Counted from the first letter of the stretch, positions 31,671-37,354 are shown. The stretch: 64,000 bases of DNA from a virus (IMGVR_UViG_3300012798_000001:1-64000); one strand, 5' to 3'. Made by a program: numbers and translations. Notes: a model not told the origin generated them from the letters alone.

Positions 31671-31710
31671 CTCAAAAAGAAATGGCCGCGCCCGTTGGGG
31701 CTGCGGCCAT
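31671..31710 (-). terminator. strong rho-independent terminator (minus strand)
   Basis: On the minus strand the sequence reads ATGGCCGC-A-GCCC-CAAC-GGGC-GCGGCCAT followed by TTCTTTTTGAG. Confidence 0.8.
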
Positions 31711-32016
31711 CAAGTGAGCACTCCAGTCGGCACATACCCGGAGAGGAAAGTGCAGATCGGCGACGCATTGCGCCTGCGGAGTGCTTGGCGCGCACAATAG
31801 CCCAGCGACCGCCTCTCTGTCACGCGCTCGCGTGAAGAGATGGACACTGATTCAGGGCTCACATATGATGCCCTGGCGGCAACACATCAGCACGAGACGT
31901 CTTGCCTGCCTCGGGCACACCAGCGAGCCCCCCTCGTCTGCAACCGCCCGATCCGGCCGGCCCCCTTCCTCCAGCTCGGGGCCGGCCGGGCTCCCAACAG
32001 CTTCGGAAGGCCGGTC

Positions 32017-32262
32017 ATGGACGCAGGCCGTATCCATCCGCCTTGGGACGAGAAGGTCGTTGCCGGGCTCAACCGCTGGCAGTCGAACTGCCTCGTCCAT
32101 CCGTTCACATGCGACAAGGGCCATGACCTGATCGCCGGGCCCAATGGCTGGGCCTGCCCTGCCTGCGATTACATGCAGAGCTGGGCCTGGGCCTTCATGG
32201 CCGATGGCGGCCCGGTGCTGCGCGGCGAGCCGCTGCGTCTGGTGGTCGACCGGAAGGACTAG
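32017..32262 (+). CDS. small Cys-containing protein
   Basis: GGAAGG SD. 'HPFTCDKGHDLIAGPNGWACPACDY'. Confidence 0.45.
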   Translation: MDAGRIHPPWDEKVVAGLNRWQSNCLVHPFTCDKGHDLIAGPNGWACPACDYMQSWAWAFMADGGPVLRGEPLRLVVDRKD

Positions 32263-32840
32263 CTGGAGCCCTCGACCCCGGCGCCGGGCGTGGTATCAAT
32301 GGGCGTCTGCCGGCGTGCCGGGCCATGTGTGAGCGTGGTGGGCCCTGAAATAATGGGACAGGCCAAAACGCCACATTCAACGACACGGCCGAGGTCCCTC
32401 CACCTCCCCCTCGAAAAGCGGCGCACCGGCAGACGCCACCCTCCAGGGTTAGAAGGCCCCGCCGTCGCGCACAGCGCGCCCGTGGCGGCCGAGGCGCTGT
32501 CGCCGCTGTAACGGGGCCCAGACGGCCCGATGGCCCTGTGCGGCCCCTGTGCGCGGCCGGCGGGCCGAGTCAGCCTGGCGTCGGCCTGGCGGGCTTAAGG
32601 GTGTTCGGCCGCCTCGCCCCGCCAATAGGCCCGCGCCGCGTTGCGGTGGCGCTGGAGGGCCTTGGCGCGCTGGGCCTGGGCTACGGCGGCCCGGCGCCGC
32701 ACCTTGGCCTGGAGGGCCTTGCTGCGGCGCCGGGTGCGGTGGCGCTTGGGATGGGGCCGCTCCTGCCGGTTGTCCAGCAGCGCTTGGCGGGCCTCCAGGC
32801 TATTCGCGGTGGGGAATGAGCGATGGGCCATGGCGGGAAA

Positions 32841-32917
32841 TGGAGGCAGGAAGCGGATTCGAACCGCTGACCTTCAGGTTATGAGCCTGACGAGCTACCG
32901 GGCTGCTCCATCCTGCC
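32841..32917 (-). tRNA. tRNA-Met(CAU), elongator-type (or Ile2 if lysidinylated), CCA encoded
   Basis: Hand-folded cloverleaf GGCAGGA/TCCTGCC. D arm GAGC..GCTC, anticodon arm TCAGG-CTCATAA-CCTGA, T arm AGCGG-TTCGAAT-CCGCT. The G1-C72 pair excludes an initiator. Confidence 0.85.
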
Positions 32918-32963
32918 CCGCGATCATAGGCGGGGCAGGACTCGCTGGCAACGGCCGGCCACG

Positions 32964-33515
32964 TTACTCGGGGACGAGAACCGTCGCGATGCCATCGGCG
33001 CCCCGCAGCCGCCAACTGCCGCCGAATCTCTCTCCGCTCAGTCTGAGGCGCCAGATCTCATAGCCTCGGGCGTGGGACCAATCGACCCGCCCGGTGTCTC
33101 GGAAGCGCCGCAGGGTTTCGACTGCTTCGGAGGCGGTGATCCGTTCGAAGTGGAAGACCGACCCGCGCTCGTCGCGACCGTGGAAGAGATGATACGCGAC
33201 CGTGCCGTCGATCCCGAGCCACCGCGCGGCGATGACGGGGACATCGCGCAGGAGCGACTTGTTCTGGTCATGGGCGGCGAAGTGCCAGAACCGAACCGGA
33301 TCTGCCAGCAGCGCGCAGTGACCGGCCATGCAGGCGGCGGTGCCGCACTCATGTTCTGGCGCGAGCCGGCACATCCAAGAGCCCATAAAGAAGCCGGCCC
33401 GCTGCCCGGTCACCGGGTCGAGCCACCCCTTGTCCCCGGCCGCCACGACCTCCTCCAGGTGGGCGATCAGCACGTCGAGATTGGTCTTGGTCACATTGAA
33501 CGAGCCATCCGGCAT
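32964..33515 (-). CDS. hypothetical protein
   Basis: 183-aa ORF lying between the phosphoesterase gene and tRNA-Met. Confidence 0.55.
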   Translation of the reverse strand: MPDGSFNVTKTNLDVLIAHLEEVVAAGDKGWLDPVTGQRAGFFMGSWMCRLAPEHECGTAACMAGHCALLADPVRFWHFAAHDQNKSLLRDVPVIAARWLGIDGTVAYHLFHGRDERGSVFHFERITASEAVETLRRFRDTGRVDWSHARGYEIWRLRLSGERFGGSWRLRGADGIATVLVPE

Positions 33516-33527
33516 TTCCGATCTCCT

Positions 33528-34259
33528 CTATTGGCTGTCGCGGGACGCCACCGCGTCCTCGGTCAGGTCCCGCCTCATATGCGGGTCGCACGTCACCTCG
33601 ATCAGCTTGACCGGGCCGCCAGGGATGTCGTTGTCGAACACTCCGACGACGATGCGGCCGGTGCGCCAAGCGAAGGTGTCCAGGTCGGTGCGGCCGGCCA
33701 GGAAGATCGGGCCATCCGGGAACTGCTCATGCCCATGGACCACATGCCGGTCCTGGTGGCCGCGCTCGTCCCCCGGCCTGTAGATCTTACATTGCAGCAC
33801 CTCGGGGTTCTGCTCATCGAGCGGGACCTCGGGATCGACGCCGGCATGAACGAACACCCGGTGCTCGTCGACGAACATCAACGGGAGGTTGTCGAGCCAC
33901 TCCAGGTGCTCGGCCGGGACCACGCTGGCGTCAATCGGGGCCTTGCCGTCCATGCCATAGGACAGGAGGGTCCAGCCGCCGCCATTGCCGATCCACCAAT
34001 CCATGATGGACTTGCCGCGGACGCAGGCGACCATCATCGCCTCGTGGTTCCCCTGGAGGCAGATCCAGGTCCAGCCCTCCGGCGGCCCGGCCATGAGACA
34101 GTCGATGATGCCTTTGCTGTTGGGGCCACGGTCCACATAGTCGCCGAGAAAGATGATCGTGCCAGGCTCATCGGCCTCGGCGTAGATCGCGGCCAGAGCC
34201 GCGTCCAGGATGTCATAGCGACCGTGCAGATCCGCGATGGCATAGGTGTAGCCGGGCAT
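33528..34259 (-). CDS. metallophosphoesterase, lambda-PPase/PrpA/ApaH-like Ser/Thr phosphatase family
   Basis: 'YAIADLHGRYD', 'IFLGDYVDRGPNS', 'LQGNHE' and 'VFVHAG' are the canonical calcineurin-like motifs. Confidence 0.85.
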   Translation of the reverse strand: MPGYTYAIADLHGRYDILDAALAAIYAEADEPGTIIFLGDYVDRGPNSKGIIDCLMAGPPEGWTWICLQGNHEAMMVACVRGKSIMDWWIGNGGGWTLLSYGMDGKAPIDASVVPAEHLEWLDNLPLMFVDEHRVFVHAGVDPEVPLDEQNPEVLQCKIYRPGDERGHQDRHVVHGHEQFPDGPIFLAGRTDLDTFAWRTGRIVVGVFDNDIPGGPVKLIEVTCDPHMRRDLTEDAVASRDSQ

Positions 34260-36064: not shown

Positions 36065-36090
36065 CGTCAGAGCTTCAAATTGCGGGGAGA

Positions 36091-36471
36091 TCACGCCGGC
36101 TCCGGCGGCTGGAGGATGTATCGCTTCACCGACCGATCGTACCGCATCATGCCAGGGCAGCGCGCTTCGATCTCCCGCAAGTCGTGTGACGCTTGGGCGC
36201 TGGAGACTTCGCCGATCCGCATGATATCGGCTCGGTTCAATTCCCCCGTCATGATGAGATGATCGACTGCCGCGGCAAGCCGGGCACGTACCGCCGGGCG
36301 CAGGCCATTCCAAGCCTCGTCGTCTTCGGGCCGGGCCTCTTGTGTCAGGCGAGCGGCTCGGTCGGCCCGGTCCAAGACCGCAAGCACGTCGTCGATCTTC
36401 AGGGTTGTGTAAGTGAGACCGTGGGCCTGATGGTTTTCCACGATGCGGCGCAACTCGGCGAGGTTGACCAT
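36091..36471 (-). CDS. winged-helix DNA-binding protein
   Basis: The C-terminal 'LNRADIMRIGEVSSAQASHDLREIEARCPGMMRYDRSVKRYIL' resembles wHTH domains that accompany Fic/AlbA-type proteins. Confidence 0.5.
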   Translation of the reverse strand: MVNLAELRRIVENHQAHGLTYTTLKIDDVLAVLDRADRAARLTQEARPEDDEAWNGLRPAVRARLAAAVDHLIMTGELNRADIMRIGEVSSAQASHDLREIEARCPGMMRYDRSVKRYILQPPEPA

Positions 36472-36478
36472 CGCCAGA

Positions 36479-36679
36479 TCACGCCGTCGCGCGGCTGTTC
36501 AACCGATCGGCCTCGCGCTCGATCCTGGCGAAGTCGTGAGTCCACTCGCCCACGATGTTGAAGGTCGCGGTCGCCTCGGGCTGGAAGGTCCCATCCGGGG
36601 CGCGCGACTGCGACCACCAATGGGCCAGGGCCCAGCCGGCCCGGCTGTCGAACACCACGATGTATTTGCTCTGATCCAT
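36479..36679 (-). CDS. hypothetical protein
   Basis: 'MDQSKYIVVFDSRAGW' with a GGGGGAAG SD. Confidence 0.5.
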   Translation of the reverse strand: MDQSKYIVVFDSRAGWALAHWWSQSRAPDGTFQPEATATFNIVGEWTHDFARIEREADRLNSRATA

Positions 36680-36689
36680 CGCTTCCCCC

Positions 36690-37046
36690 TCACGCCGTCG
36701 CCATGGTGACGTCCAGGTGGACGGCATCGTAGGGGAACAGCACCCCGGACTCGGTGCCGATGATCTGCCGGTCGAGGAGGCCGGCGAGGATCAGCGCATG
36801 GATGTCGGTGTGAACGCCCTTGAAGTCGCGATCCACCCGCCGGGCGACCTCGCGCATGGTCATGGGGCCCTGGCCGCTCATGACCTTGAGGATCTCCCAA
36901 CGCTTGGGCGTGAGCACCTTGTGCAGCAGTTCGAACGAGATGAAATCGATCCGGGGCGCCTGGGCTTCCACGTTGCCCTTGAAGCCGGCGGCGAGGCGGC
37001 GCTGCGTCTCGGCCAGGGAAGCGACGCCGATCGTGACGGTGTTCAT
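36690..37046 (-). CDS. TumA-like HTH antitoxin
   Basis: 'LTPKRWEILKVMSGQGPMTMREVARRVDRDFKGVHTDIHALILAGLL' is a MarR-like wHTH. ATGA overlap with the toxin gene. Confidence 0.65.
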   Translation of the reverse strand: MNTVTIGVASLAETQRRLAAGFKGNVEAQAPRIDFISFELLHKVLTPKRWEILKVMSGQGPMTMREVARRVDRDFKGVHTDIHALILAGLLDRQIIGTESGVLFPYDAVHLDVTMATA

Positions 37047-37333
37047 TTCAGGATCTCCTTCCAGGTGTTCACGTCGGTCCAGAAGTCGGCGAGCAGGGTG
37101 TCGACGTCGACAAAGCGGTAGGGGACCTCGCTGTCCCACAGGTGCTTGTGATCGCCCTTGCCGCGCTCGTTGTCGTACCGCATCACGCACTCGCCCTTGG
37201 ACACGAGGGCGAGGCGATATTTGAAGCCATGGCTGCTGCCCGGCACCGGGGTGGGCACCGCCCATACGACCATCTCGACGAAAGCGGTCTCGGTCAGGAC
37301 CAGTCGGTTGCGGAGTAGAAGTTTGGCGTTCAT
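37043..37333 (-). CDS. TumE-family (DUF6516) toxin-like protein
   Basis: 'VVWAVPTPVPGSSHGFKYRLALV...MRYDNERGKGDHKHL' matches my recollection of the TumE/DUF6516 signature. Confidence 0.65.
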   Translation of the reverse strand: MNAKLLLRNRLVLTETAFVEMVVWAVPTPVPGSSHGFKYRLALVSKGECVMRYDNERGKGDHKHLWDSEVPYRFVDVDTLLADFWTDVNTWKEILK

Positions 37334-37334
37334 G

Positions 37335-37354
37335 GGGGCACAGTAGCGTGCCCC
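37335..37354. promoter_or_regulatory. operator-like palindrome GGGGCAC-N6-GTGCCCC (copy 2)
   Basis: Perfect 7-bp arms, starting 2 nt upstream of the TumE-like start codon. Confidence 0.6.

Follow-up and report, generated by a model that had tools for sequence, protein, structure and literature searches.

A phage accessory arm with five tRNA genes, including a Tyr(GUA)-like RNA lacking a D-arm, as a probable set of independent cassettes

Introduction

Does a toxin-antitoxin pair, a macrodomain, five tRNA genes and a phosphatase lying together on one strand of a viral genome form a single operon for tRNA supply and repair, as a first-pass annotation proposed, or a set of separate units? The window, meaning the whole 64,000-nt stretch of DNA analysed, was recognized early as phage DNA, and its portal, tape measure, tail fibre, integrase and primase-helicase genes bear this out. 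An alpha-proteobacterium is the probable host; no close prophage turned up in either of two genome-collection scans. Taken jointly, and with somewhat more confidence than doubt, we read the 31–37 kb stretch as the leftward accessory arm of a temperate siphovirus-like phage, and its sequence as that of independent cassettes inherited together, neither a single operon nor a single pathway.

Gene Content of the Accessory Arm

The minus-strand order runs from tumE-tumA through five small ORFs and the macrodomain gene to four abutting tRNA genes, the NinI-like phosphatase gene, a DUF gene, tRNA-Met and an Arg-rich ORF (Table 1). The genes originally named are indeed all on this strand, with short gaps or overlaps between them. 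This order is shared with five related phages (L019, L020, L065, L066 and L067), and an identical phosphatase protein occurs on six metagenome contigs with the same gene calls. Nucleotide identity in the relatives is 92–99% in the tRNA cassette versus 71–84% in the flanking genes. When loci of phosphatase and macrodomain homologues were compared, the arm parts were unlinked outside this lineage; as judged from gene neighbourhoods, their joint presence is descent within one phage lineage with no conserved pathway. The constant order in six phages could also reflect a functional link that is invisible to synteny alone.

Five cassettes would make up the arm, with contents that we count as established by sequence evidence: the tumE-tumA toxin-antitoxin pair; an orphan DarG-type macrodomain; tRNAs Ser(GCU), Ser(CGA), Gln(UUG) and Tyr(GUA)-like with their own conserved head; a NinI-type phosphatase with a downstream protein of no assigned family function; and tRNA-Met with a small Arg-rich protein and its own promoter-like site. 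For the arm as a whole, "counter-defence and translation-supply island" is a plausible label.

The toxin-antitoxin pair, already suspected, was corroborated by domain matches to TumE (PF20126) and a TumA-type HTH (PF25212), and tumA overlaps tumE by 4 nt. TumE-TumA is an experimentally validated family that targets translation, whose toxin stops translation and is suspected to be an RNase (PMC10584680). TumE heads the arm in most relatives (up to four of five); L020 is without it, and the L067 contig is cut there. The BrxR-type match of the 126-aa ORF was not reproduced in our own domain scan, and the 99-aa ORF was rejected as a DarT by profile comparison. At the far end, tRNA-Met has the elongator signs of a G1-C72 pair and an anticodon stem lacking three consecutive G-C pairs; an Ile2 role for this tRNA is unlikely, given that ATA codons are hardly used. 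Among the relatives, L020 and L067 have it and L019 and L066 do not. In L019 and L020 the adjoining Arg-rich ORF shows the highest protein-level conservation of the arm's ORFs (82–85% amino-acid identity).

Table 1. Features of the accessory arm and its borders, with positions counted from the first nucleotide of the window.
Feature	Position	Strand	Evidence or remark
Second inverted repeat GGTGATG-N10-CATCACT	37358..37381	.	Over -35; kept in L019, L065, L066
TumE promoter-like site	TTTACA 37368-37363, TACTGT 37345-37340		17-nt spacer; consensus-level
Candidate palindromic operator GGGCACAGTAGCGTGCCC	37336..37353	.	Covers spacer and -10 of TumE promoter-like site
TumE toxin, 96 aa	37043..37333	-	PF20126 59 bits, 4e-16; phrog_16135 6e-29
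TumA-type winged-HTH antitoxin, 118 aa	36690..37046	-	PF25212 HVO_A0114 1e-25
66-aa ORF	36479..36679	-	No family
126-aa ORF	36091..36471	-	Weak BrxR-type winged-helix match (precomputed Pfam)
99-aa ORF	35795..36094	-	Stop overlaps macrodomain start (GTGA)
Orphan DarG-type macrodomain, 155 aa	35331..35798	-	PF01661
48-aa ORF	35188..35334	-	Single hydrophobic helix
72-aa ORF	34923..35141	-	No family; found in L020, missing from L019
Conserved head of tRNA cassette	34839..34904	-	Kept in six phages whichever gene precedes
tRNA-Ser(GCU)	34746..34834	-	Canonical 7/5, G73, CCA encoded; ARAGORN, Rfam
tRNA-Ser(CGA), 8/4 "allo" type	34654..34742	-	Rfam sub-threshold; structure; conservation
tRNA-Gln(UUG)	34571..34644	-	Canonical, CCA encoded; ARAGORN, Rfam
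tRNA-Tyr(GUA)-like RNA, D-arm missing	34481..34569	-	Rfam sub-threshold; covariation
Operator copy GGGCATTGATCTGTGCCC	34454-34471		Harbours -35 of promoter-like site before phosphatase
Promoter-like site TTGATC, 16 nt, TG-TATGAT	34439..34471	-	-35 within operator copy
NinI-like (lambda-type PPP) phosphatase, 243 aa	33528..34259	-	Metallophos; phrog_246 7e-44
183-aa protein	32964..33515	-	phrog_889
Promoter-like site TTGCCA, 17 nt, TATGAT	32923..32951	-	Directly upstream of tRNA-Met
tRNA-Met(CAU), elongator type	32841..32917	-	ARAGORN, Rfam
78-aa Arg-rich ORF	32595..32831	-	No family
Hairpin then GCUUUUCG	32405..32470	-	Neighbourhood kept in L020, L067 downstream of Ro60 module
Terminator of separate unit	31671..31712	-	Upstream of acidic ORF 31368-31601

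Promoters, Operators and Terminators

The arm had been described as one operon running from an operator at 37335 to a strong terminator at 31671-31710, which is contradicted by at least four promoter-like starts and by a converging plus-strand gene between the arm and the 31.7-kb terminator. A scan gave five promoter-like sites against 1.0 expected from shuffles. In the arm, such sites lie upstream of TumE, upstream of the tRNA cassette, at 34466-34439 and at 32951-32923. The TumE ATG lies 7 nt past the -10, so its mRNA may be leaderless. The site ahead of the phosphatase is kept in five of five relatives, two of which (L019 and L066) carry it twice.

The candidate operator is borne out as a perfect palindrome, GGGCAC-N6-GTGCCC, with further copies at 20459, 34454 and 41390, and it overlaps two of the promoter-like starts. 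Sites with at most two mismatches number 18, against 9.4 ± 3.1 in shuffles, and in relatives the palindrome is kept at the same two arm positions with constant arms and a varying spacer (L019, L065 and L066). Going by the consensus, one phage regulator would bind all of these palindromes: those at the promoters of TumE and the phosphatase, the one in the 20.4-kb control region, and the one at 41.4 kb, which lies upstream of a small ORF that precedes the integrase; with such a common regulator these units would switch together. The second inverted repeat at TumE is a candidate site for TumA autoregulation.

The hairpin and U-run at 31671-31712 form a convincing terminator, kept in relatives with compensatory stem changes, but one that closes a separate unit and not the arm; this unit consists of a promoter-like site (31823-31794), about 120 nt with a UUCCUCUCCGGG motif, and the terminator. 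The plus-strand gene (32017-32262) converges on the arm from its own conserved promoter, and the hairpin with UUUU at about 32405-32470 appears the likelier end of the arm than the 31.7-kb terminator.

The tRNA Cassette

The cassette opens with a conserved head bearing an extended -10-like TGGTATAC (34904-34897) 7 nt ahead of an ATG, which starts a 16-codon ORF (34889-34839, MTYALRYRQQSSRSSF) whose stop lies 4 nt ahead of the first tRNA. The four clustered genes are spaced 3, 9 and 1 nt apart, within the 1–9 nt first reported. All five tRNA genes proposed for the arm are real, with encoded CCA, but two are non-canonical: ARAGORN, the suggested check, calls Ser-GCU, Gln-UUG and Met-CAU and misses 34654-34742 and 34481-34569, which match the Rfam tRNA-Sec model at 35.6 and 32.3 bits (gathering score 47). 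These two, both with an 8-bp acceptor and 4-bp T stem, were accepted on the strength of conservation and covariation. The anticodon stem of tRNA-Ser(GCU) carries compensatory changes in L020. Along with its 8/4 stems, tRNA-Ser(CGA) combines a long variable arm with a Sec-like D arm closed by a tetraloop, and it carries G73 and CCA; the L067 copy is called tRNA-Ser(cga) by ARAGORN; on its predicted structure it fits the known 8/4 "allo" class (PMC5389517).

The Tyr-like RNA reads, in its 5′ half, as an 8-bp acceptor, UU, CCCGUC, A and an anticodon arm (loop CUGUAAA), and in its 3′ half as a 4-bp variable stem, a 19-nt loop containing GACGGG plus GG, a 4-bp T stem, A73 and CCA. A long-range helix pairs CCCGUC, at the D position, with GACGGG of the variable-arm loop, and a "D stem" would thus form from six nucleotides of each. 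Roughly a dozen phage lineages share the design, as does one cultured Rhizobium phage, and a single scheme fits 23 of 23 distinct sequences; most of the stretches compared are without a canonical tRNA-Tyr. Across 14 of these sequences, 97.4% of cells pair (40–51% in slid controls), both sides change in 18 of 27 pairs, and pairing in the long-range helix reaches 98.8%, one of its positions showing five pair types. No description of a phage tRNA-Tyr type without a normal D-arm was found in the literature, making this an apparently undescribed part of the arm.

Serine codons of late genes are chiefly UCG (41%) and AGC (31%), and ATA codons are near zero. The tRNAs would feed phage translation, with decoders for the two Ser codons that the phage uses most and for Gln, Tyr and Met, and may also stand in for host tRNAs lost to tRNA-cleaving defences.

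The Macrodomain and the Phosphatase

The macrodomain, annotated from the outset, has DarG proteins as best relatives (PDB 5m31, 3e-39; PADLOC DarG, 2.5e-59; NCBIfam antitoxin_DarG, 8e-57). Of the two roles put forward for it, processing of ADP-ribose-1″-phosphate is not supported, the Appr-1″-p phosphatase 6lft reaching only E 0.004, whereas reversal of nucleic-acid ADP-ribosylation is the one that fits its close relatives, the DarG DNA ADP-ribosyl glycohydrolases; these relatives thus point to DNA and away from by-products of tRNA ligation. N22 and the catalytic Lys (K80 equivalent; FPTK motif) are kept, the C-terminal DarT-binding half is absent from the protein and no DarT gene was found. 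An R replaces the N of DarG and AdfM in the GxGNGGL loop, so activity is not certain. By its predicted function the protein is an orphan, AdfM-like, DarG-type DNA de-ADP-ribosylase, which would strip ADP-ribose placed by host DarT on thymidines of single-stranded phage DNA; removal of DarT-added ADP-ribose from DNA has been shown for phiKZ AdfM (PMC13309987). Among the loci of homologues, 6 of the 9 viral and all 11 cellular ones are free of nearby tRNA genes, and in the jumbo phage L021 the homologue lies within a tRNA array.

The lambda-PPase-like phosphoesterase was upheld as a NinI-like metallophosphatase with all motifs (DxHG, GDxxDRG, GNHE and HGH, read from the translation) and 52% identity to p047 of Rhizobium phage 16-3. 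Pnkp was rejected as an identity, as the match extends over no more than a metal-binding motif some 60 residues long and scores 31.5 bits where the cut-off is 750. Among loci of its homologues (12 viral contigs, Rhizobium phage 16-3 and phiCbK), none has a macrodomain neighbour and one, L013, has a nearby tRNA gene, tRNA-Met. Like other NinI-type enzymes, it would act on phosphoproteins or nucleotides. The downstream 183-aa protein has only eight homologues found, every one in this phage group; it gave no fold match, and its predicted model has a pLDDT of 64.

Alternative Explanations

That the two non-canonical genes are decayed pseudogenes or integration-site remnants without function is barely credible. 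Both are missed by ARAGORN and the Rfam tRNA model, and the minimum free energy of the Tyr-like RNA is no better than that of shuffles (z -0.43); they are nevertheless strongly conserved beside diverged neighbouring genes, retain CCA, A73 and the GUA anticodon loop, and keep all stems through compensatory changes across about a dozen lineages, covariation that, as aligned, already contradicts decay. The integrase is 5 kb off, and both acceptor strands are there, which an attP remnant would not need. Also improbable, though less so, is the supply-and-repair module first proposed, in which the phosphatase heals 2′,3′-cyclic phosphate ends, the macrodomain clears ADP-ribose-1″-phosphate or RNA ADP-ribosylation, and the tRNAs refill the pool. 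The parts do remain together in six related phages, the phosphatase shares the Metallophos fold with the Pnkp phosphoesterase and weakly matches a phage "RNA ligase" PHROG via its metal-binding motif, and L020 and L067 add Ro60 and a YrlA-like (Y-RNA-like) RNA to the arm. In Salmonella such a pair lies beside the RtcB/RtcA RNA-repair genes. Ro60 is, however, missing from the window itself, the macrodomain belongs to a DNA-acting class, the phosphatase is far below the Pnkp model, and its homologues elsewhere lack the macrodomain and, but for L013, a tRNA neighbour. Profile and domain searches found no ligase, kinase or cyclase among the ten arm ORFs, in line with the earlier remark that no RNA ligase is present, and no Hen1 in the arm; with ligase and kinase absent, the repair half of the proposal is unsupported. 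An RNA-centred theme for the arm is conceivable in view of the Ro60 and Y-RNA-like genes of two relatives and the L021 macrodomain.

A stronger contender, though one we still find doubtful, is that the tRNA cassette serves chiefly in counter-defence, its 8/4 Ser and D-armless Tyr evading attack by nucleases or modifying toxins directed at host tRNAs of normal form. The suggested enemies are host systems such as tRNA-Tyr nucleases of the PtuAB type, or TumE from the phage itself. Phage tRNA supply as an answer to tRNA-targeting defences, raised in the first-pass annotation, is an established idea; phage tRNA-Tyr saves T5 from Retron-Eco7, and PrrC and PARIS are countered by phage tRNA-Lys (PMC11555353, PMC11464382). 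A Tyr decoder is present here, TumE heads the arm in most relatives, strong purifying selection acts on the odd tRNAs, the Tyr type recurs across many phage tRNA arrays from which canonical tRNA-Tyr is mostly missing, and allo-tRNAs are often close to toxin-antitoxin systems (PMC5389517). Yet L020 retains the tRNAs though it is without TumE-TumA, and the match to the commonest phage Ser codons is equally explained by plain supply. The known cases of evasion by tRNAs involve anticodon-loop changes or overexpression and not architecture.

Comparison with Known Systems

With the T5 tRNA-Tyr/Retron-Eco7 and tRNA-Lys/PARIS and PrrC systems the window shares a phage-borne Tyr decoder, an anti-defence neighbourhood and an apparent own promoter; those tRNAs, however, are canonical cloverleaves, and the window holds no evidence for a cognate host nuclease. 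Like lambda NinI and 16-3 p047, the phosphatase is a PPP-family metallophosphatase of phrog_246 with complete metal motifs, encoded by a temperate phage, but only about 30% of lambda PPase is aligned (phmmer, E 7e-8). AdfM (phiKZ gp104) and orphan DarG-like phage antitoxins (PMC13309987) are likewise stand-alone, DarG2-macrodomain-like proteins of about 150 aa, with the catalytic Asn and Lys, a GxMGxG motif and no DarT partner. The window macrodomain, its function predicted from sequence, differs in being nearer to bacterial DarG than to AdfM (four-way alignment), in its identity of about 35% to those of phiKZ-like jumbo phages (tblastn), in the R of its phosphate loop and in residing in a temperate siphovirus without a phage nucleus. 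PMC11825919 and PMC11481870 offer further comparison.

The allo-type tRNA-Ser of alpha-proteobacterial phages (Mukai et al. 2017, PMC5389517) resembles Ser(CGA) in its 8/4 stems, long variable arm, G73, Sec-like D arm and false tRNA-Sec match, and in lying within a cluster of phage tRNA genes close to a toxin-antitoxin pair. Its 8/4 partner is tRNA-His, whereas here the partner is the Tyr-like RNA, and position 33 of Ser(CGA) is C and not U in three relatives (L019, L020 and L066). Known bacterial tRNAs are all canonical cloverleaves according to a 2024 paper (PMC11551756). Mitochondrial tRNAs lacking the D-arm (metazoan mt tRNA-Ser(AGY) and nematode mt tRNAs; PMC7609411) likewise have no D hairpin and have a short acceptor-anticodon strand touching the variable and T region. 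The phage Tyr-like RNA, in contrast, comes from viruses of bacteria and is unreduced (89 nt), with a full T arm, an 8/4 acceptor branch and a long variable arm whose loop gives the missing D-stem strand and GG.

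Phage, Host and Gene Content

The 64-kb window has a G+C content of ~67% and encodes a portal fragment, tape measure protein, J-like tail fibre and tailspike on the plus strand, together with a tyrosine integrase and a primase-helicase, identifying a temperate siphovirus-like phage. An O-antigen acetyltransferase-like gene after the tailspike (phrog_3333 at 1.5e-50) is likely a lysogenic-conversion gene. Comparison of a 5.9-kb region with GenBank phages gave tRNA-level matches only and no DNA-level match to a cultured phage, neither of two genome-collection scans turned up a close prophage, and an exact 27-mer of the tRNA-Tyr-like gene described below had no match in the genome-contig collection; the macrodomain protein found distant cellular homologues only (34-46%) in the genome collection. 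Seven metagenome contigs encode a phosphatase protein identical to that of the window, and on each of the six displayed, independent gene callers give the same ORFs. Since the phosphatase has relatives in Rhizobium phage 16-3 and in Caulobacter phages of the phiCbK group, the host is likely an alpha-proteobacterium.

A third-position G+C screen combined with the ORF list delineates an unbroken row of accessory genes, hereafter the arm, from TumE to an Arg-rich ORF (Table). The first two gene products, a DUF6516/TumE protein and an HTH antitoxin in one unit, are assigned by family match as a TumE-TumA toxin-antitoxin pair, which would serve for addiction or exclusion, or else to shut off translation. 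Eight homologues were found for the 183-aa protein, whose AlphaFold model has a pLDDT of 64 and a best Foldseek match no better than E 2.7. Searches of all ten ORFs with PADLOC and NCBIfam models returned nothing besides DarG and generic phosphatase matches.

Features of the arm and its surroundings in the window
Feature	Position	Strand	Remarks
O-antigen acetyltransferase-like gene	16656-17741	minus	after tailspike
Gene-free region	20200-20970		~770 nt
Perfect palindrome copies	20459; 41390
Promoter and ~120-nt unit	31671-31823	minus
Terminator	31671-31712
Converging gene	32017-32262	plus
Hairpin followed by UUUU	about 32405-32470
78-aa Arg-rich ORF	ends 32595	minus	last gene of row
tRNA-Met	32841-32917	minus	after 183-aa ORF
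Promoter-like site	32951-32923	minus	precedes tRNA-Met; promoter scan
183-aa ORF		minus	after Metallophos protein
Metallophos protein (phosphatase)		minus	after tRNA cluster
Promoter-like site	34466-34439	minus	precedes phosphatase; promoter scan
tRNA-Tyr-like gene	34481-34569	minus	in tRNA cluster
16-codon ORF	in 34839-34904	minus	before tRNA cluster
Extended -10-like TGGTATAC		minus	7 nt before ATG at head of tRNA cassette; read by eye
ORFs of 48 and 72 aa		minus	between macrodomain and tRNA cluster
Macrodomain		minus	after 99-aa ORF
ORFs of 66, 126 and 99 aa		minus	between TumA-type HTH and macrodomain
TumA-type HTH		minus	PF25212, 89.6 bits; 4-nt overlap with TumE
TumE	start 37333	minus	PF20126, 59.1 bits (cut-off 23.4)
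Promoter-like TTTACA-17-TACTGT		minus	ends 7 nt before TumE ATG; read by eye
Tyrosine integrase	40018-41133	minus

Gene identities and a conserved order are evident by sequence comparison: the order is the same in five related phages (L019, L020, L065, L066 and L067; 57-86% protein identity), with TumE-TumA missing from L020 and tRNA-Met from L019 and L066. Outside this lineage the parts of the arm separate. Directly downstream of the Arg-rich ORF, L067 (4091-5890) and L020 (10567-12274) encode a 547-aa Ro60/TROVE-vWA protein with a YrlA-like RNA before the gene (36 and 31 bits, below the gathering score). The module is absent at that place in the window, where tblastn with the L067 TROVE protein and an Rfam scan found no Ro60-Y RNA module.

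Macrodomain and Phosphatase

Among solved structures, the macrodomain is closest to those of Thermus DarG (5m31, 3.4e-39) and Mycobacterium DarG (7e-33), TARG1 and Appr-1''-p phosphatases being much weaker matches. It matches the PADLOC DarG model at 2.5e-59. The catalytic Asn (N22) and Lys (K80, in an FPTK motif) both align, whereas the phosphate loop, GxGNGGL in DarG, reads GCGRGGL. The NCBIfam antitoxin_DarG model (NF048014) is covered over positions 1-148 of 338 at 193 bits, below its cut-off of 250, and the PADLOC model likewise aligns by its N-terminal half only. Neither a C-terminal DarT-binding domain nor an adjacent darT gene was found, and the protein is therefore an orphan similar to AdfM rather than a full-length DarG within a DarTG system. 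The 99-aa ORF upstream was considered as a DarT candidate and rejected, being too short and without a family match.

Stand-alone DarG2-like macrodomains have been documented as protecting phages from DarTG2, and AdfM of phiKZ removes DarT2 marks from DNA (PMC13309987). Like these anti-DarT macrodomains, that of the arm stands alone without a DarT partner, and it is best read as a further orphan DarG2-like phage protector that would strip DarT marks from replicating phage DNA. Homologues were detected by tblastn in 289 GenBank phages, phiKZ-like ones included. In a jumbo phage (L021, a 232-kb viral contig; 312-5686), an array of nine tRNAs includes a gene for a DarG-type macrodomain (44% identical), placed between tRNA-Lys and tRNA-Arg. 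With few cases of orphan DarG-like counter-defence so far, the arm adds a temperate phage of alpha-proteobacterial type.

The phosphatase carries all the metal-binding motifs of the PPP type (GDxHG, GDxxDRG, GNHE and HGH) and matches phrog_246 (NinI-like) at 6.6e-44 and lambda PPase (1g5b) at 7e-8, and is accordingly classified by sequence as a NinI-like, lambda-type PPP phosphatase. Its identity is 52% with p047 of Rhizobium phage 16-3 and about 40% with its phiCbK-group counterparts, and in phage 16-3 and phiCbK the neighbours of the homologue are unrelated to the arm. It stays below every NCBIfam equivalog cut-off: the ApaH, PrpA and PrpB models gave 46, 37 and 36 bits (cut-offs 176-332), and the Pnkp model TIGR04075, aligned along only ~60 residues, gave 31.5 bits where 750 are required. 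The likeness to Pnkp, as to a phage "RNA ligase" PHROG, does not extend beyond the N-terminal region with the motifs. None of the other arm genes occurs in twelve viral contigs whose phosphatase homologues are 45-52% identical, and a tRNA lies nearby in one of the twelve. The phosphatase would act on some protein or nucleotide substrate.

These assignments bear on the first-pass annotation, in which the arm was proposed to supply and repair tRNAs, the phosphatase healing RNA ends and the macrodomain either processing a by-product of tRNA splicing or reversing nucleic-acid ADP-ribosylation. Of these two options for the macrodomain, kinship with DarG speaks for the second, reversal, and against the by-product of splicing. 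An RNA theme is hinted at by the macrodomain inside the L021 tRNA array and by Ro60 with YrlA-like RNA in L020 and L067, so repair keeps a small probability; however, the macrodomain is of DarG type, nothing in the compared sequences ties the NinI-like phosphatase to RNA ends, no kinase or ligase was found among its neighbours, and the parts of the arm do not stay together outside the lineage. The repair reading is thus not supported, and its rejection averts a false lead. The arm is better read as a mixed counter-defence and translation-supply island, its role in defence evasion and the substrates of its enzymes being presumed; as an operon it is mostly ordinary, stacking known accessory kinds (a toxin-antitoxin pair, an anti-DarT macrodomain, tRNAs and a NinI-type phosphatase).

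Transcription Units and Candidate Operators

A promoter scan identified five sites where 1.0 was expected, and further promoter-like sequences were read by eye (Table). The palindrome GGGCAC-N6-GTGCCC overlies the TumE promoter, and a copy with one mismatch overlies the -35 of the phosphatase promoter; near-copies cluster beside both perfect copies elsewhere in the window, and sites with at most two mismatches number 18, compared with 9.4 +/- 3.1 in shuffles. At the TumE site, the arms of the palindrome are conserved among relatives while the spacer varies, the pattern expected of a protein-binding operator. Half-sites (GGGCAC/GTGCCC) are also abundant, in both arrangements, in a gene-free region of lower G+C content (60%) upstream of a gene for a 583-aa protein with an XRE-type HTH (HTH_31), and this region looks like the main control region of the phage.

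A single operon running from an operator at 37335 to a terminator at 31671 had been proposed earlier; the minus-strand genes, the palindrome and the terminator are real, but the boundaries and the single operon do not stand. A plus-strand gene whose promoter is conserved runs convergently towards the arm, and a hairpin followed by UUUU is the better candidate for the arm's end. The terminator near 31.7 kb, whose stem changes are compensatory in relatives, was rejected as the operon end, as it closes a separate promoter and 120-nt unit before the next minus-strand ORF. Given the multiple promoter-like sites, the converging gene and a terminator belonging to another unit, the arm probably comprises several co-regulated units. 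We infer this regulation at the level of consensus matches: one phage regulator would switch on several adjacent units, and the switch appears wired to the integrase-proximal promoter.

Aligned with L019, L066 and L067, the separate unit shows a conserved promoter-like site, ~120 nt and the compensating terminator stem. Within the ~120 nt is an anti-Shine-Dalgarno-like UUCCUCUCCGGG. An acidic 77-aa ORF with CGGGAGAGGA in its leader follows closely downstream, and the unit may yield a small RNA or attenuate transcription.

Canonical and 8/4 tRNA Genes

The five tRNA genes with encoded CCA reported in the first-pass annotation were confirmed, the clustered four, Ser(GCU), Ser(CGA), Gln(UUG) and Tyr(GUA)-like, being spaced 3, 9 and 1 nt apart as read by eye. 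The ARAGORN check suggested there bore this out for three and missed the other two; precisely where ARAGORN leaves gaps, Rfam has two tRNA-Sec matches below threshold. Ser-GCU, Gln-UUG and Met-CAU reach the Rfam tRNA model RF00005 at 52-66 bits (gathering score 29), and the Ser(CGA) and Tyr-like genes fall below that score and are not canonical. tRNA-Met was rejected as an initiator, having a G1-C72 pair and an anticodon stem without GGG/CCC (elongator features), and as an Ile2 tRNA, ATA codons being almost unused in late genes.

Selection on the tRNAs is apparent at the nucleotide level, the cassette of four being 92-99% identical among the six phages (the window and its five relatives) compared with 71-84% for the macrodomain, phosphatase and DUF genes. 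In late genes, UCG (41%) and AGC (31%) are the commonest two Ser codons and CAA makes up 14% of Gln codons. The tRNA set therefore serves frequent codons, contrary to the alternative that it merely matches rare late-gene codons. The cassette would provide more decoders for Ser, Gln, Tyr and Met codons, and phage tRNAs may also replace host tRNAs lost to nucleases.

The (8/4) allo-type is defined by an 8-bp acceptor and 4-bp T stem, a long variable arm, G73/U73, a Sec-like D stem with a tetraloop and a Ser anticodon, and tRNA-Ser(CGA) reads best as a member. Read as 7/5, it would have an A.C mismatch where the 8/4 reading pairs G8 with C65; its D arm (GCCGA-AUGG-CCGGC) forms a stem and tetraloop as in tRNA-Sec, and it resembles clear 8/4 copies from other phage arrays (L072 and L084). 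Mukai et al. (PMC5389517), who described the 8/4 class from tRNA clusters of alpha-proteobacterial phages, came upon it among false tRNA-Sec hits and reported that toxin-antitoxin genes lay close by. In the anticodon loop of tRNA-Ser(CGA), position 33 is C in L019, L020 and L066 and the near-universal U in the window, L065 and L067.

All six phages carry a 16-codon ORF, MTYALRYRQQSSRSSF, that begins 7 nt after TGGTATAC and leaves 4 nt between its stop and the first tRNA. Tyr, Gln or Ser account for 8 of the 15 codons after Met, the codons UAC, CAG-CAA, UCG and AGU are decoded by the four tRNAs that follow, and synonymous third positions make up three of the five variable sites. As a leaderless peptide, the ORF product could act as a sensor for the cassette, or the ORF could simply be the precursor leader. 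L020 (about 7331-7505) and L066 (about 3170-3333) have a ~170-200-nt insert between tRNA-Gln and the Tyr-like gene, conserved with scattered substitutions and without an Rfam match or obvious ORF, that may be another structured RNA.

A tRNA-Tyr-Like RNA without a D Arm

The item worth follow-up in the arm is the Tyr-like gene. It has an acceptor stem, anticodon arm (loop CUGUAAA), T arm, A73 and CCA, with just ten nucleotides at the D-arm position and a "variable" region of 28 nt. An exact-pattern scan recovered this arrangement from a viral contig that is unrelated and low in G+C, and a looser one about twenty further sequences. A viral pattern with the T loop fixed as GAGTCC gave zero Tyr-like matches, one anchored on GACGGG mainly chance matches and tmRNAs, and a metagenome scan copies of already-found lineages only. 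One scheme fits all 23 distinct sequences, from roughly a dozen lineages: an 8-bp acceptor stem, UU, CCCGNN, one nucleotide and a 5-bp anticodon stem; a variable arm with a 4-6-bp stem and a loop, usually of 19 nt, containing NNCGGG (or NNUGGG) and then a conserved GG; and a 4-bp T stem.

The fold is evident in a 14-sequence alignment, in which pairing holds in 97.4% of cells and both sides change in 18 of the 27 pairs; none of 500 shuffles matches these values, and sliding the partners lowers pairing to 40-51%. Pairing reaches 98.8% in the long-range helix that joins the D position to the variable loop, where one pair varies as UA, CG, UG, AU and GC. This helix forms a pseudoknot with the variable stem; forcing it costs 0-3 kcal/mol relative to the nested optimum. 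The eighth acceptor pair occurs as GC, UG, UA and CG, supporting an 8/4 reading. Tyr identity elements (GUA, A73, a long variable arm, and acceptor and T arms) are present in 22 of the 23 sequences, the other (L085) having G73, and the RNA may be charged with tyrosine. The remainder of the Tyr set calls for a D arm with G18 G19, U8 and A14, and the RNA has no D hairpin, hence the name tRNA-Tyr-like. A D-stem partner and a GG are located in the variable loop, and this GG may play the part of G18-G19; the variable-arm loop would then supply both the D stem and the T-loop-docking GG, pseudoknotted with the variable stem.

These RNAs lie within phage tRNA arrays, canonical tRNA-Tyr is absent from most fetched stretches, and the Tyr-like RNA would be the Tyr decoder of many such arrays. 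It escapes detection by ARAGORN and the Rfam tRNA model, and may persist by evading tRNA-Tyr-directed immunity or toxins. The cultured Rhizobium phage RHph_N3_2, a phage of R. phaseoli N3_2, carries the gene unannotated at about 39882-39970 of MN988526.1, in a 5-kb stretch where ARAGORN calls no tRNA. In the L094 numbering of this phage (2492-2652), a weak YrlA-like match (34.9 bits, E 1e-5) follows the gene within 15 nt, both sitting in a 700-nt gene-free stretch.

The fold is very probably real, use in translation is somewhat favoured, and the architecture has probably not been published already; a literature search of incomplete coverage found no description of a D-armless phage tRNA, an absence that is weak evidence. 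The whole chain, an undescribed and unpublished natural architecture in which a chargeable 8/4 tRNA-Tyr without a D hairpin is used in translation, is put forward tentatively, as a possibility with the balance against it. The gene reveals a family of structurally rearranged phage tRNAs, and the availability of a cultured phage-host pair makes the idea directly testable. If these RNAs do work in translation, standard tRNA finders undercount phage tRNA sets, and the family would provide a naturally occurring scaffold for engineering orthogonal tRNAs and a fresh approach to phage resistance against tRNA-targeting immunity. It would also be a natural exception to the cloverleaf-only rule for bacterial-type translation. 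A 2024 paper describes every known bacterial tRNA as a canonical cloverleaf (PMC11551756).
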